Shown: piece after piece, positions 4,453-52,987 of the stretch
Layout of the letters: each line of letters starts with the position of its first letter
How positions within the stretch are numbered: position 1 is the first letter of the stretch
DNA from: Escherichia phage vB_Eco_ZCEC15
Direction: 5' to 3' (one strand)
DNA length: 64,000 bases
Sequence record: PQ871103.1
Notes under the pieces: model-generated
The model's database searches: none
What the model was told of the DNA's origin: nothing
The model's input: only the letters and a program-made list of their open reading frames with translations
Position numbers and translations under genes: made by a program

Positions 4453-5295
4453 TTAATCAACTGCTATTGGATGAATAGCATTAAACTTATGAAATGCTTC
4501 TGATTTTTCTTTGCGCGAAACACACATGCGAAGAACCTTTAATGGCTCGTCTTCTTCACCCAACGATTTTCTCTTTTCAATATTCGATGTTTTCCAACGA
4601 GCTTGCTCTGGAAACTCTCTATTGATTTGCTCAAGAGCTCTATTATGTTTTGAATTACTACGAATTGAACTGCACCCGCCCGGAGCCTGTGCTTTTCCAG
4701 ATACAACCAGATATTTGAACAGGGCCAAATGCGGATAACCTTGATTAATTAAATTGAGAAATGCATACATATCTTCGCATAAATCAATTTTTCCATACCC
4801 AATTTGTTCTGTTGTAAGTTTTCCGAGGTCATACCATGTATTCGTGAATCCATATGAATTTTCACGATAATTACCCCAAGATGAAGTAATTTTAAAAATT
4901 GGTAAACGAGCATGACCATGATAATACCCGCAATCCATGGCATCTTCAACGTATTGAATCAATTCATAGAACTGTTCACGAGTTAACTGATTAATTTTAT
5001 CTACGCAGCGACGATCATCTTTCTTTCGCATTGAACTCATACGAATAGTAGTATCATCATCAATCATCCAAATTCGTTGACCTGCATACATATCAGTAAT
5101 TGCTTTACGAGTACCGGCAATTCCGTTTACATCATCAGGAATAGTTATAATTTTAGCTCTAGACCCATAGGCATCATAATAAGCTTTTTCTTCATGTTCA
5201 CGCACTACAATATGGGGTTCATAATCAGTCGGAAACATATCAAGGGCAGAAACTGCCCCGACACGCTGATAACTTGGAATTACGAATTGAATCAT
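4453..5295 (-). CDS. GT-A fold glycosyltransferase, 280 aa (candidate beta-glucosyl-HMC-alpha-glucosyltransferase of T2/T6 type)
   Basis: N-terminal VIPSYQRV and DxD motif IWMIDDD typical of GT-A enzymes; occupies the locus of T4 beta-gt but is unrelated in sequence. Confidence 0.6.
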   Translation of the reverse strand: MIQFVIPSYQRVGAVSALDMFPTDYEPHIVVREHEEKAYYDAYGSRAKIITIPDDVNGIAGTRKAITDMYAGQRIWMIDDDTTIRMSSMRKKDDRRCVDKINQLTREQFYELIQYVEDAMDCGYYHGHARLPIFKITSSWGNYRENSYGFTNTWYDLGKLTTEQIGYGKIDLCEDMYAFLNLINQGYPHLALFKYLVVSGKAQAPGGCSSIRSNSKHNRALEQINREFPEQARWKTSNIEKRKSLGEEDEPLKVLRMCVSRKEKSEAFHKFNAIHPIAVD

Positions 5296-5933
5296 TTAAG
5301 TGCCTTACATTTGTCAAAATGGTATCTTGTCATATTTGGCCCACGTCCTTTTAGTCCGCAATGCGGACATATTTTTTCTATCAAATTATGAGGTTTTCCT
5401 TTACGATTTTTAGACATCGTTTCTTTAATTATTTTAGCTTTTTCTGCGCCAAAAATTTCTTCATAAGTTTTACCAGAATTTTCCTTTGCTCGATTTATAA
5501 TTCCATATGCCTGCTCATTTTTACCATACATTGGATTACCTTCGCCTTTCATTCTTTTAGAATGATCAGGACGCTTGATTCCACGAAAGGCATTTCCGCA
5601 CTTATATCTTTCTTCTGGAGATAGTTTTTTACCGTACATTCCATTTAATTTGCCTGGAAAACTTCCTCCCCATGCTTCATTCTTTAAATTATATGAATCC
5701 GGACAATTAGCAGCATCTAAACAAGTTAAAATAATTTCTTCAACCTGTCTAAACATTGGTCCTTCATATAATATTTCTTTATTAAAGGATTTTATTCCAT
5801 ATTTCTTTTTAGCATGTTGCCAAACTACACCCGAACCATCATAATTTGGGTTGTGACCATCATGACTTCCTATATACCACTTTTTAGTTTTAGGATGTTT
5901 ATACTTATAAACATGTGGCACATTTACTTCCAT
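5292..5933 (-). CDS. GIY-YIG homing endonuclease (seg-like), 213 aa, C-terminal zinc finger
   Basis: VYKY...WYIGS GIY-YIG motif, NUMOD3-like G-K-x-S/P-E repeats, C-terminal CPHCG...RYHFDKC. Confidence 0.75.
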   Translation of the reverse strand: MEVNVPHVYKYKHPKTKKWYIGSHDGHNPNYDGSGVVWQHAKKKYGIKSFNKEILYEGPMFRQVEEIILTCLDAANCPDSYNLKNEAWGGSFPGKLNGMYGKKLSPEERYKCGNAFRGIKRPDHSKRMKGEGNPMYGKNEQAYGIINRAKENSGKTYEEIFGAEKAKIIKETMSKNRKGKPHNLIEKICPHCGLKGRGPNMTRYHFDKCKALK

Positions 5934-17962: not shown

Positions 17963-18454
17963 TTATACCATTTTTTTACCTTTATTATGTGATGAAGCTT
18001 TAAATTTATTTGACCTTCCTTTTACATAACCTTTTGGAATATAAGGCAAAAAGGCAGATTTTCCTGTTAATGGATCATGTGAATGTATATTTCCTTTACA
18101 ATTATGAGAACCATATAATGGATGATTTTGTCCTTTATTATCTCTTCCAAATGAACCTTTTGGAGCAGCATATGACATATTAAAGAATAATGGATTTTTA
18201 ACTGCATCATGCAATCGTTGATAATATAACTCGCATTTAATAGCTTCTTCACGCGTATCAAATTCAGCTAAAATGCATGAATCAAATAAGTGAGGATTAT
18301 CTGAAAGCTCTTTATTATAAATTTTCTTATACTTTTTAGATAAAACTGAACCATGATATCCAGCTAAATGCCTATCTAAAGACGTAGATCCAATATAAAA
18401 AGGAGGAAGTTTATCTCCACTATATATTGTTAAATAAGTTATATATTTTTTCAT
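17963..18454 (-). CDS. GIY-YIG homing endonuclease-like protein, 163 aa
   Basis: YLTIYSG...FYIGST and FDSCILAEFDTREEAIKCELYYQ resemble the I-TevI catalytic core; NUMOD3-like repeats. Confidence 0.75.
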   Translation of the reverse strand: MKKYITYLTIYSGDKLPPFYIGSTSLDRHLAGYHGSVLSKKYKKIYNKELSDNPHLFDSCILAEFDTREEAIKCELYYQRLHDAVKNPLFFNMSYAAPKGSFGRDNKGQNHPLYGSHNCKGNIHSHDPLTGKSAFLPYIPKGYVKGRSNKFKASSHNKGKKMV

Positions 18455-48619: not shown

Positions 48620-49181
48620 ATTTTTCTAATAATAAATCGCTTTCAAAATTGGGATTTTCTACGAATTTATCAAAAAGATCATCAACAATAGTTAAGATAT
48701 TCTTTTTACTAAGAATACGCTTATTTTCATATTTTGTTTCAGAGTCAACTATAAGAGTAAAGAAATATTTCTTTCCCTGAAATTTTACCGTAGTATCAAT
48801 ATAAAATAAATTTGATTTTTGTAAATTACGTTTAAACCATGCATCACTTAAACTATAAACGCCAAGATAATCATAATCGTCGTTTAAATAACAAACCGTC
48901 CATTCAGGAGAAATGAAATCAGTAAATTCAACATCAAAATCACACGTCAATGAATGAATTGATTCAATACTGTTAATAAGTATTCCAGGACGTATTAAAG
49001 ACTTTTTACCTCTAGAAAATCTTCCGGAAAGACTTTCATCAGTTTCATATGAAGACCCCCAATAGTAATTACGTCCTTCTGCCATACGTTTAAGAGCATT
49101 TAGTAATTGGTCTGGAACATCAACCTGTCTTTGGAACTCTTCAAACATTGAATTGAAATCACTTTGCATTTTCATTTTCAT
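48567..49181 (-). CDS. hypothetical protein, 204 aa, C-terminal KECREYVK (e.5 position)
   Basis: ORF track. Confidence 0.6.
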   Translation of the reverse strand: MKMKMQSDFNSMFEEFQRQVDVPDQLLNALKRMAEGRNYYWGSSYETDESLSGRFSRGKKSLIRPGILINSIESIHSLTCDFDVEFTDFISPEWTVCYLNDDYDYLGVYSLSDAWFKRNLQKSNLFYIDTTVKFQGKKYFFTLIVDSETKYENKRILSKKNILTIVDDLFDKFVENPNFESDLLLEKFVKECREYVKAITIPSK

Positions 49182-49200
49182 TCCTATTTACTCCAAGTAT

Positions 49201-49218
49201 AAGGGGCCGAAGCCCCTT
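49201..49218 (-). repeat. UUCG-tetraloop hairpin (aaggggccgaagcccctt)
   Basis: Same hairpin as at 10645. Confidence 0.5.
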
Positions 49219-49222
49219 ATCA

Positions 49223-49815
49223 TTATTTCAGAGAATTAATGTATTCCTGAACATCGGCAGAGGTAGTTTCAACCCCAGAAATATTACCATTAAAGGTTTC
49301 AACTCGAGCAAGGGTATCTTCAATATCAACCTTAGTCAGTGCTGCAATTTCAACTACATCATCTGCAGCACTAATTCCAAGGGCATTTGCCGCACGAGTT
49401 TCACGGATATATTCCAATTTAACTGCAAGCTCTTGACGAGCATCATCTAACTCAACTACTTTCTTGGCGATTTCAATTCGCATTTCAGCATAACCGTCAG
49501 CCTTAGTAGTCAACTGCTCAGCTGTTCGACGATATAGTAAACCAAGTTTAGCATGCATTGTTACATCTTGACCTTCGGAAAGAAGTTTACGAATTTCACG
49601 CTCTTTTGATTCAGCCTGTCGATTCTTTTCGACAATAAGTTCACGAATACGTTTTTCTTCATTAATAGATTTAACAGAAGCAGTTTTAGATCTTTAATTT
49701 TATCAAGTAGTTTTGCTGCCGCAGCAGTATACTGTTCTTCAACAGATAAATTTTTAGCCATAGCAGAACCAAGTTTAGTGCGAATAAACTCAACAATTTT
49801 CTTCAGTGTGTTCAT
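49223..49815 (-). pseudogene. gene split by a 1-nt frameshift in a T4 (plus) / A4 (minus) run near 49684-49687; joined product about 196 aa
   Basis: Upstream ORF turns into low-complexity out-of-frame sequence after DKIKDLK; the frame of the downstream ORF is open and protein-like for about 40 codons before its ATG. Confidence 0.45.
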
Positions 49816-49872
49816 AGTATTTCCTTAGGTTGATACAATTAGATAATATCACGTTTTTAATAGATTGTAAAC

Positions 49873-50208
49873 TTATTCTTCGTCTATCTCATCGATAAAG
49901 ACGTCAATGGCCTCGATAACGGCATCATTGATAGCCAATAAAGTAAAATCATCGTCAGTGCCTTTAGAAGATTCTAAAGCATTGATATATGCTTGGTTAG
50001 CAAGTTCCCAAGCCTTTTTAAAATAAGGAGCTTCATCATCAGGGCCAACGAAACGTACACCTTCAAAGATACGGTTAGCATAATCCAATACCCACTGTAC
50101 AGGCATGTTTTGAGAGCGTTCGTTAAACTCTTTAAATTCCTTAGATTCAAAAAGCTCTTCGGGATAATAATTTCGATTACAAAAAGCTTTACTAAAGTTA
50201 CGTTTCAT
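49873..50208 (-). CDS. acidic hypothetical protein, 111 aa
   Basis: ORF track. Confidence 0.55.
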   Translation of the reverse strand: MKRNFSKAFCNRNYYPEELFESKEFKEFNERSQNMPVQWVLDYANRIFEGVRFVGPDDEAPYFKKAWELANQAYINALESSKGTDDDFTLLAINDAVIEAIDVFIDEIDEE

Positions 50209-51612: not shown

Positions 51613-51689
<77 letters not shown>

Positions 51690-51692
51690 TAA

Positions 51693-52358
51693 TTAAAATT
51701 TCATTTTTCTACCTTTAAACCATCCTTCTGGAATTGGGTCAGTTTTCTTAATACGTTTAGAAACTTTTTCATCTAATGAATGAATCCACATCATACCAAA
51801 TTGGGAATTCTTTTCACCTTGTTGGTGTTTATTTTTGGCGTGAGATTCTTTCATTTTATTAATAGTTTCAGGAGTATGATGCTTATTTAAAAATCTGCTA
51901 TTATTTAAAAATTTTTCCCTGTATTCAGGAGTTGACCACAAACGTTTAAATACATTTGAACCATGTTTACGATATTTTTCTTGAAGTAAAATATCATTTT
52001 TAAAACGTGACTTAAACGATTTAGCTCCTTTTAAACTAGCGTCTTTCTTCTGATTTAGCATCTCAGGAATATTTATATGGTCCCATCCACCTTCACCACC
52101 AAGTTTTAAATTATACACATCTGGTCTATTTAAAAACTCTTCTGTGACAATATTTTTCTCGGCTTCAAGCATAGATTCTTTATCATCAAAATACTCTAAT
52201 ATTTCTTTAGAGAAATTTTCTATACCATACTTGTCTTGGGCTCTTTTTAATAATTTACCAGAACCCATATATCCATCATCTAAATTTTCGGTAGAATGCA
52301 CACCAATATAAATTTTATTATTAATTTTATTTGTTATTTTATAAGTGTAATGGAACAT
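51693..52358 (-). CDS. segB: GIY-YIG homing endonuclease SegB, 221 aa
   Basis: YTYKITNKINNKIYIGVHS motif; sits between tRNA subclusters as in T4. Confidence 0.85.
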   Translation of the reverse strand: MFHYTYKITNKINNKIYIGVHSTENLDDGYMGSGKLLKRAQDKYGIENFSKEILEYFDDKESMLEAEKNIVTEEFLNRPDVYNLKLGGEGGWDHINIPEMLNQKKDASLKGAKSFKSRFKNDILLQEKYRKHGSNVFKRLWSTPEYREKFLNNSRFLNKHHTPETINKMKESHAKNKHQQGEKNSQFGMMWIHSLDEKVSKRIKKTDPIPEGWFKGRKMKF

Positions 52359-52418
52359 AAATATCTCCTATTTCTAAGAGTATTTATGTTCCCAAAATAT
52401 GGCCCTGGGTGGAATTGA

Positions 52419-52490
52419 ACCACCATCTGGCGATTATGAGTCGCTTGCTTGAACCTTCCAGCTACAGGGCCTTGGTGCTGATTGACGGAA
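52419..52490 (-). tRNA. tRNA-Ile (anticodon CAU, lysidine type), CCA not encoded
   Basis: Acceptor GGCCCTG/CAGGGCC, T-arm GGTTCAATTCC, anticodon loop CTCATAA. Confidence 0.7.
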
Positions 52491-52491
52491 T

Positions 52492-52567
52492 CGAACCGCC
52501 GACGTCCTCATTACAAGTGAGGTGCTCTACCTACTGAGCTAAATCAGCGAAATTACGGAGGCGATAG
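52492..52567 (-). tRNA. tRNA-Thr (anticodon UGU), CCA encoded
   Basis: Acceptor GCTGATT/AATCAGC, anticodon loop CTTGTAA. Confidence 0.8.
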
Positions 52568-52574
52568 GATTTGA

Positions 52575-52661
52575 ACCTATGAGTCGCCGGAGCGACTGCC
52601 GGTTTTCAAGACCGGTGCATTAAACCACTCTGCCACGCCTCCAGTCTCCATACAAGGATTT
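52575..52661 (-). tRNA. tRNA-Ser (anticodon UGA), long variable arm
   Basis: Acceptor GGAGGCG/CGCCTCC, anticodon loop CTTGAAA. Confidence 0.8.
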
Positions 52662-52663
52662 GA

Positions 52664-52821
<158 letters not shown>

Positions 52822-52826
52822 GGACT

Positions 52827-52913
52827 CGAACCCACAAGGAAATCATTCCGCAGCATTTTAAGTGCTGTGCCTTTACCAATTTGACCATTCTCGCGCTGGG
52901 AATAAAGGACTCG
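52827..52913 (-). tRNA. tRNA-Leu (anticodon UAA), long variable arm, CCA encoded
   Basis: Acceptor GCGAGAA/TTCTCGC, anticodon loop CTTAAAA. Confidence 0.8.
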
Positions 52914-52914
52914 A

Positions 52915-52987
52915 ACCTTTGCATCCTGGAATCAAAATCCAGTGCCTTACCAACTTGGCTAATTCCCAATTATTAACAAAGGCTCTT
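52915..52987 (-). tRNA. tRNA-Gln (anticodon UUG)
   Basis: Acceptor TGGGAAT/ATTCCCA, anticodon loop TTTTGAT. Confidence 0.8.

Follow-up and report, generated by a model that had tools for sequence, protein, structure and literature searches.

A single-base homopolymer deletion splits the orthologue of T4 gene e.6 in Escherichia phage vB_Eco_ZCEC15: slippage mutation or base-calling error

The e.6 locus

The window analysed here is a stretch of 64,000 nucleotides from Escherichia phage vB_Eco_ZCEC15 (PQ871103.1), which has a Tequatrovirus (T4-like) genome. Positions 49223-49815, on the minus strand in common with the other genes of the region, hold the orthologue of T4 gene e.6. A megablast search with 49100-49950 matched 638 phage records, the best being Shigella phage vB_SsoM_113 (hereafter SsoM_113) at 99.8% identity; over 25-kb stretches of the window, the phage collection contains no record at 99% identity or above. 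The gene order under the match in T4 and its annotated relatives is e.8, e.7, e.6, e.5, with e.6 forming a single CDS of 594 nt (197 aa) in T4 and in every annotated relative examined. The window shares this family synteny: its e.6 is flanked by e.5 and e.7 and adjoins the tRNA cluster. The features of the locus are as follows.

49843..49871, minus strand: sigma-70-type promoter-like site (TTTACA, 17 nt, TATTAT, with TG before the -10), 10/12 matches in a consensus scan
49561..49815, minus strand: 5' fragment of e.6, an 84-aa ORF with native residues 1-44 plus 40 out-of-frame residues and a stop (…KVKM*), from the ORF list and translation
49684..49687, minus strand: the lesion, a run of four As on the coding strand (four Ts on the plus strand) spanning the end of L43, K44 and the start of T45; a single gap column in alignments
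49223..49693, minus strand: 3' part of e.6 in the -1 frame, native residues 44-197, open from 49693, from the ORF list and translation
49199..49220, minus strand: GC-rich hairpin with core GGGGCTTCGGCCCC, seen in the sequence; a scan reported the palindrome on the plus strand

The promoter-like site lies just upstream of the e.6 start codon and looks like a T4 early promoter, as which it may function. The hairpin directly follows the e.6 stop codon and resembles an intrinsic terminator or an RNA-stabilising hairpin; its role as a terminator is proposed tentatively, because the coding-strand T-tail is weak. The tRNA cluster (51613-52968, minus strand) comprises eight genes (Arg-TCT, Met, Thr, Ser, Pro, Gly, Leu-TAA and Gln) and includes no tRNA-Lys gene. 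T4 has tRNA-Ile and no tRNA-Met, and phage UGKSEcP2 additionally carries His, Asn and Tyr tRNAs.

The e.6 region of the window is 593 nt long, against a 594-nt ORF in T4 and almost all relatives. Intact relatives carry a run of five As on the coding strand (CTAAAAACT; A5) where the window has four (CTAAAACT; A4) at 49684-49687, in the context GAT CTA AAA CTG. Alignment to the T4 orthologue, which an earlier reading of the sequence alone had proposed as a check, and to SsoM_113, ECP2301 and PP01, shows exactly one base missing, inside the A5 run, and it is the absence of this A that splits e.6 into two ORFs. In tblastn searches, e.6 residues 1-34 of T4, SsoM_113 and UGKSEcP2 match the frame of 49561..49815 at 100% identity and residues 44-197 match that of 49223..49693 at 99%; since intact orthologues match two adjacent frames this closely, the split is not a chance pattern. 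Restoring the A in silico gives a 594-nt ORF encoding 197 aa, of which 2/197 residues differ from T4 e.6. The repaired product is 98% identical to the family member P0001 and matches PHROG 1203 (phrog_1203) with E = 3.6e-87, residues 1-197 aligning to positions 1-199 of the 200 in the model.

The only ATG-initiated ORF within 49223..49693 is that at 49223-49558, which encodes 111 aa (native M86-K197) and whose ATG, native Met86, lies 2 nt beyond the stop of the 84-aa ORF. An intact member of the e.6 family is expected to have one uninterrupted ORF of about 193-203 codons; the window has the 84-aa and 111-aa ORFs in its place. The sequence-only reading had suggested that a single-base change in a homopolymer splits one gene here, and alignments, tblastn and in silico repair bear this out. 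Its particulars also stand: the frame of the downstream ORF, described as open and protein-like for about 40 codons before the ATG at 49558, is open for 45 codons from 49693 and encodes native e.6; the low-complexity stretch that it saw in the upstream ORF beyond the run at 49684-49687 is the out-of-frame tail that follows K44; and one added A does fuse the two ORFs, the product being 197 aa long (it had estimated about 196).

Over 851 nt, only the indel and a non-synonymous SNP (T148A) distinguish the window from SsoM_113, and both lie in e.6. A 59-mer around this SNP has no exact match in the phage collection, a faint hint that would fit relaxed constraint following inactivation.

Rarity of the allele and state of e.6 orthologues

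A 58-nt query centred on the run matched 449 records of the phage collection, none of them identically, and the best 30 of the 449 all span 59 nt and hence have A5. Exact patterns searched in IMG/VR found the A5 23-mer four times and the A4 22-mer never; neither in IMG/VR nor in JGI metagenome contigs did exact A4 patterns return any e.6 sequence. The 22-mer used for IMG/VR and the metagenomes required GATCT. The independent A4 allele described below reads GACCT, and was for this reason missed by these scans and surfaced via a search of protein representatives. A widened A4 pattern gave one metagenome match, discarded as an unrelated chance 23-mer outside e.6.

A profile-guided scan of IMG/VR recovered 40 e.6 loci, 38 of which are intact with ORFs of 193-201 codons. 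The other two have lesions elsewhere in the gene: L052 (1501-2083) shows an A6-to-A7 change near codon 113 when compared with L047, a relative 98% identical to it, and L036 (1447-2040) is one A short in TCTAAATTC, near codon 14. As judged from their sequences, these two copies are broken independently, at other short A runs. Among protein clusters, 44 of 48 are full length (195-234 aa, mostly 197) down to 47% identity, and include proteins from phages of Klebsiella, Serratia, Yersinia, Pectobacterium and Aeromonas. The sequence-only reading held that orthologues encoded as two genes with the same boundary would speak against a split gene; the orthologues are instead single genes in T4, in annotated relatives, in 38/40 IMG/VR loci and in 44/48 clusters.

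In the cluster alignment, L43 is invariant, whilst codon 44 varies (K, Q or R, with Q or R in other genera and more distant relatives); the A run is therefore not conserved in e.6. The stretch from residue 45 to 85 that is lost in the window contains the conserved positions E53, A61, K64, A68, E72, E74, I75 and V85.

Two further proteins from Logan contigs show other forms of damage. In P0080 every substitution is of the C-to-T type (A to V, S to F, T to I, R to C), the pattern that bisulfite-converted reads would give, and P0070 begins at M86 and has a further frameshift between ...EYI and SVKLV. Given such damaged e.6 copies in the public protein collection, its short fragments need checking before they are read biologically.

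The same deletion in another lineage

An exhaustive search of representative proteins brought to light P0082, an 84-aa protein with the same junction (…KDLK followed by LLLLNLL…KVKM) and four differences in the tail. Its gene lies on a 1256-nt Logan contig of run SRR27242230, in the same layout of 84-aa and 111-aa ORFs as in the window. P0090, from another Logan contig, is a second 84-aa member of the P0082 cluster.

L053 (logan:SRR27242230_20836), 601-1193: identical A5-to-A4 deletion in e.6, on a different Tequatrovirus backbone

Compared with the window, L053 has 36 mismatches over 678 nt, two of them SNPs upstream of the run at distances of 3 and 23 nt; its closest phage record is NIC06P2 (98.6%). 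The corresponding 58-mer of L053 is carried by no record of the phage collection; the only A4 sequences known besides the window are two Logan contigs. A literature search for run SRR27242230 found nothing.

Because the backbone of L053 differs from that of the window, the base was lost, or miscalled, independently in the two. Three A5 runs occur in an intact T4-type e.6 (CDS positions 61, 129 and 160), so two independent events have about a 1/3 chance of sharing one, and the recurrence alone is not remarkable. A hot spot, systematic miscalling or selection could lie behind it.

Consequences for the protein

An AlphaFold2 model of P0001, built with 45 homologues (mean pLDDT 76), has helices at 2-20, 25-80, 86-145, 151-160, 166-174 and 186-196. 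The frameshift interrupts the predicted helix 25-80 at its middle, and the 111-aa ORF starts exactly at helix 86-145.

A ribosome starting at the normal start codon would make 44 native residues and then 40 nonsense ones, 84 aa in all. No ATG-initiated ORF would contain native residues 45-85, which form the second half of the first long predicted helix, and re-initiation 2 nt past the stop would at best supply the 111-aa C-terminal piece M86-K197. The core helical hairpin of e.6 would not form, and for that reason the allele should be null. Lacking its partner helix in the model, the 111-aa fragment is unlikely to be functional, and we infer that the A4 allele gives only non-functional e.6 products.

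Private homopolymer lesions elsewhere in the window

The window was scanned for frame changes by tblastn with all ORFs of at least 50-60 aa (cut-offs of 50 and 60 aa) of SsoM_113, T4 and UGKSEcP2. Only two genes in the window change frame, e.6 and a gene for a GIY-YIG homing endonuclease; the other genes tested gave single-frame, full-length matches. The change in e.6 is seen against all three relatives, that in the endonuclease gene against SsoM_113, the sole one of the three that carries it.

17963-18454, minus strand: truncated GIY-YIG (Seg-like) homing endonuclease gene, upstream of gene 47, with the run at 17971-17977

The endonuclease is 163 aa long in the window and 207 aa in SsoM_113, owing to an A6-to-A7 expansion on the coding strand at 17971-17977; the region measures 700 nt in the 25 best relatives and 701 in the window. 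When clean, isolated 1-nt indels are considered, 49684 is the only site at which the window differs from SsoM_113, T4 and UGKSEcP2 alike, and the rest are shared polymorphisms, mostly at gene junctions. Site 53570, considered as a private homopolymer difference, was rejected, being common to other phages.

This leaves two private homopolymer lesions among the 1236 A/T runs of 4 or more bases in 64 kb, none of them in about 18.6 kb of essential genes, and the assembly looks clean. Both private frameshifts fall in dispensable genes. We set aside the sparing of essential genes as evidence for real mutation: it does not discriminate (p ~0.5 under random error), since essential genes hold about 28-30% of the A/T runs and two random errors would miss them about half the time.

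The SsoM_113 record (LR746311.1; L001/L004) has a singleton of its own. At 4585-5559, its e.5 and e.4 are fused into one 975-nt CDS, a run of four Ts taking the place of the five found in the window (48621-48625), phage T4 and UGKSEcP2.

Origin of the lesion

The explanation that we favour, at somewhat better than even odds, is that e.6 in the window was inactivated by a real and recent loss of an A from the A5 run, through replication slippage of the Streisinger type tolerated in a dispensable early gene. A/T runs are classical frameshift hot spots of T4 replication in the Streisinger model. Slippage at replication would remove one A from the run, and the window has lost one unit inside a mononucleotide run with flanks that equal those of SsoM_113 except for one SNP in 851 nt. 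The deletion in L053 speaks for the run as a recurrent -1 site, and L052 and L036 show that e.6 is also disrupted at other short A runs. The phage would bear the loss because e.6 is early, accessory and dispensable for lytic growth in the laboratory. In the CRISPRi-ART screen, knockdown of T4 e.6 is scored 'Not Fit' (0.30, 7 guides; PMC11879866, supplementary file 15), and as knockdown in T4 carried no fitness cost, a null allele would be tolerated; that supplement is the only mention of e.6 that we found in literature searches by name, accession and locus tag. That the deletion is present in the DNA rather than in the consensus alone is, however, something we infer from a single consensus sequence. 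The main competitor, which we hold to be a serious prospect at well under even odds, is a sequencing or assembly artefact: the DNA would have A5 and an intact 197-codon e.6, under-called by one base. The lesion is a pure homopolymer length change in a gene with almost no other decay; the 58-mer of the window is in no phage-collection record and the best matches listed have A5; exact A4 patterns drew no e.6 sequence from IMG/VR or JGI metagenome contigs; and neither of the two ORF products is recorded in the gene-position index. The second private lesion is also a homopolymer change, a signature of some sequencing chemistries, and public records do contain such singletons, the T5/T4 difference that fuses e.5 and e.4 in SsoM_113 among them. 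A base-calling error that is systematic and context-specific, plausible for glucosyl-hmC DNA on nanopores, would likewise recur across independent data sets. Against an artefact, a noisy technology would leave many more indels than two private ones among 1236 A/T runs and none in the essential genes, short A4/A5 runs are seldom mis-called in polished or Illumina consensus sequences, and the A4 allele was assembled independently in the lineage of L053.

The remaining explanations are much less probable. It is improbable, though the least so of these, that the A5 run at codons 43-45 is an on/off site at which T-even phages repeatedly lose, and could regain, a PspA/Vipp1-like protein (see below), with A4 favoured under some condition; A4 might, for instance, let the phage evade a defence or envelope-stress pathway of the host by which e.6 is sensed, and background -1 slippage could leave a trickle of full-length protein. 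The presence of A4 in two backbones is compatible with such a site and fits chance, given the three A5 runs, or systematic miscalling equally well. We think it very unlikely that full-length e.6 is made from the A4 allele by a programmed or leaky -1 frameshift in which tRNA-Lys slips from AAA to A-AA at CUA-AAA-C. The sequence-only reading, which listed a programmed shift as an option, was right that a -1 slip on A-AAA has the correct direction for restoring the frame: the peptidyl-tRNA-Lys re-pairs perfectly after it and the native frame resumes, and the allele that would require it is present in two lineages. As the phage cluster has no tRNA-Lys, the e.6 AAA would be decoded by the host tRNA-Lys(UUU), which is slippage-prone. 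The option itself is not supported by the surroundings of the run, which include no X_XXY_YYZ heptamer (in U_CUA_AAA_C or A_AAA_CUG only tRNA-Lys re-pairs), no Shine-Dalgarno-like (GGAGG-like) stretch in the 20 nt upstream and no downstream structure, the fold of 49600-49720 (121 nt) having an MFE of -16.3 kcal/mol against -15.2 for shuffles (z = -0.38). The codon after AAA, CUG, is abundant in E. coli, hence no pause is expected there. Where relatives share these flanks, e.6 is already in frame without any shift, and other genera have Q or R at codon 44. Nor is the shifted arrangement conserved, the best phage-collection matches listed all having A5; the expected yield would be at background, about 1% or less. 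Transcriptional slippage was rejected, the run having only 4 bases; bacterial RNA polymerase slips on A/T runs of about 9 or more. Hardly credible is that the two ORFs are genuine, separately working genes. Both begin with ATG, the second ATG lies 2 nt past the first stop so that coupled re-initiation is conceivable, and one other contig (L053) has the identical two-ORF layout. Set against this, the first ORF ends in an out-of-frame, leucine-rich tail that makes up 40 of its 84 residues, the conserved residues in 45-85 are lost, the predicted helix 25-80 is severed mid-length, and family members from Tequatrovirus through to phages of Aeromonas are encoded by one ORF of about 197 aa; a search for diverged orthologues keeping the two-ORF boundary under purifying selection found none.

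A probable relationship of e.6 to PspA and Vipp1

On the evidence of profile comparisons and a predicted fold, the e.6 protein probably represents a divergent branch of the PspA/IM30/Vipp1 superfamily (PF04012; ESCRT-III) in phages, with the proviso that coiled-coil composition can inflate the scores. Taken alone, T4-type e.6 has no match in Pfam (E up to 1) or among PDB sequences. A profile of its close relatives (A2) finds P0065 and P0066, proteins of about 202 aa, over their full length (E = 1.6e-21 and 1e-19), and BLASTP aligns P0001 with P0066 at 25% identity over 194 aa with 1 gap (E = 2e-13). P0065 and P0066 score 35.1 and 39.0 bits against PF04012, for which the gathering score is 33.9, residues 6-146 aligning to model positions 2-143, though coiled-coil composition can raise such scores; two further members of the family have sub-threshold PF04012 matches. 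P0065 is encoded on a 156-kb contig beside T4-type UvsX, a DnaB-like helicase, DsbA and DNA ligase, neighbours which indicate that it comes from a T4-like phage.

Searching the PDB with a broader family profile (labelled A4, as distinct from the allele) places eight Vipp1/PspA sequences first (E = 4.6e-5 to 1.3e-3); the top match is Vipp1 at E = 4.6e-5, with residues 1-146 collinear with 1-147. The predicted fold of P0001 has an N-terminal helix and a long helical hairpin, as expected of PspA alpha1/alpha2, and the top Foldseek matches of the model are Vipp1. Comparison with E. coli PspA by hhalign, using an approximate query sequence, was weak (E = 0.11 and 0.0019, low probability).

The e.6 family is a conserved one among T4-like phages. 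Its members, including P0065, P0066 and those at loci L055-L057, are all annotated as hypothetical, and PHROG 1203 as of 'unknown function'; our literature search found no description of e.6 as a relative of PspA or Vipp1.

Implications and comparison with known systems

The e.6 frameshift is an ordinary private single-base homopolymer deletion, whether slippage mutation or base-calling error. Worth following up are only the recurrence in L053 and the PspA-like nature of e.6. Positions 49223-49815 are best annotated as e.6 (frameshifted or pseudogene) and not as two hypothetical proteins, and the allele would be one more natural knock-out in line with the dispensability of the gene. A PspA-like e.6 would suggest that this early T4 gene may stabilise or remodel the inner membrane in infection; if the link is true, natural null alleles such as that in the window are ready-made controls.

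The nearest comparison is T4 e.6 itself (T4p129, NP_049742.1; PHROG 1203). The window copy is about 94% identical to it in DNA, lies, as there, between e.5 and e.7 and downstream of the tRNA cluster, and shares its promoter-like site and post-stop hairpin; it differs in missing one A of the A5 run, with the resulting 84-aa and 111-aa ORFs. As an event, the lesion resembles the classical frameshifts of T4 (Streisinger; the hot spots of rII and the lysozyme gene) in being a one-unit change in an A run of a T-even phage, in a gene unneeded for growth, with the same run affected in a second lineage and other short A runs in other e.6 orthologues. Those, however, were selected laboratory mutants with verified sequences, whereas the e.6 event would rest on a single consensus.

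Two known frameshifting systems, E. coli dnaX, where A_AAA_AAG is preceded by an SD-like element and followed by a hairpin, and the G/GT shift of phage tail chaperones, share with the e.6 site the -1 direction and tRNA-Lys on an A run; the e.6 site differs in lacking heptamer, stimulators and conservation, and e.6 orthologues are in frame. With the PspA/IM30/Vipp1 proteins, e.6 has in common that two distant members of its family, homologous over their full length to the T4-type protein, pass the PF04012 score, and that its model predicts the N-terminal helix and long hairpin. It departs from them in that T4-type e.6 itself has no Pfam match, in being about 25 residues shorter than PspA, and in a C-terminal third (150-197) with a conserved motif of its own, TF.G...T..D...Y..SLK.
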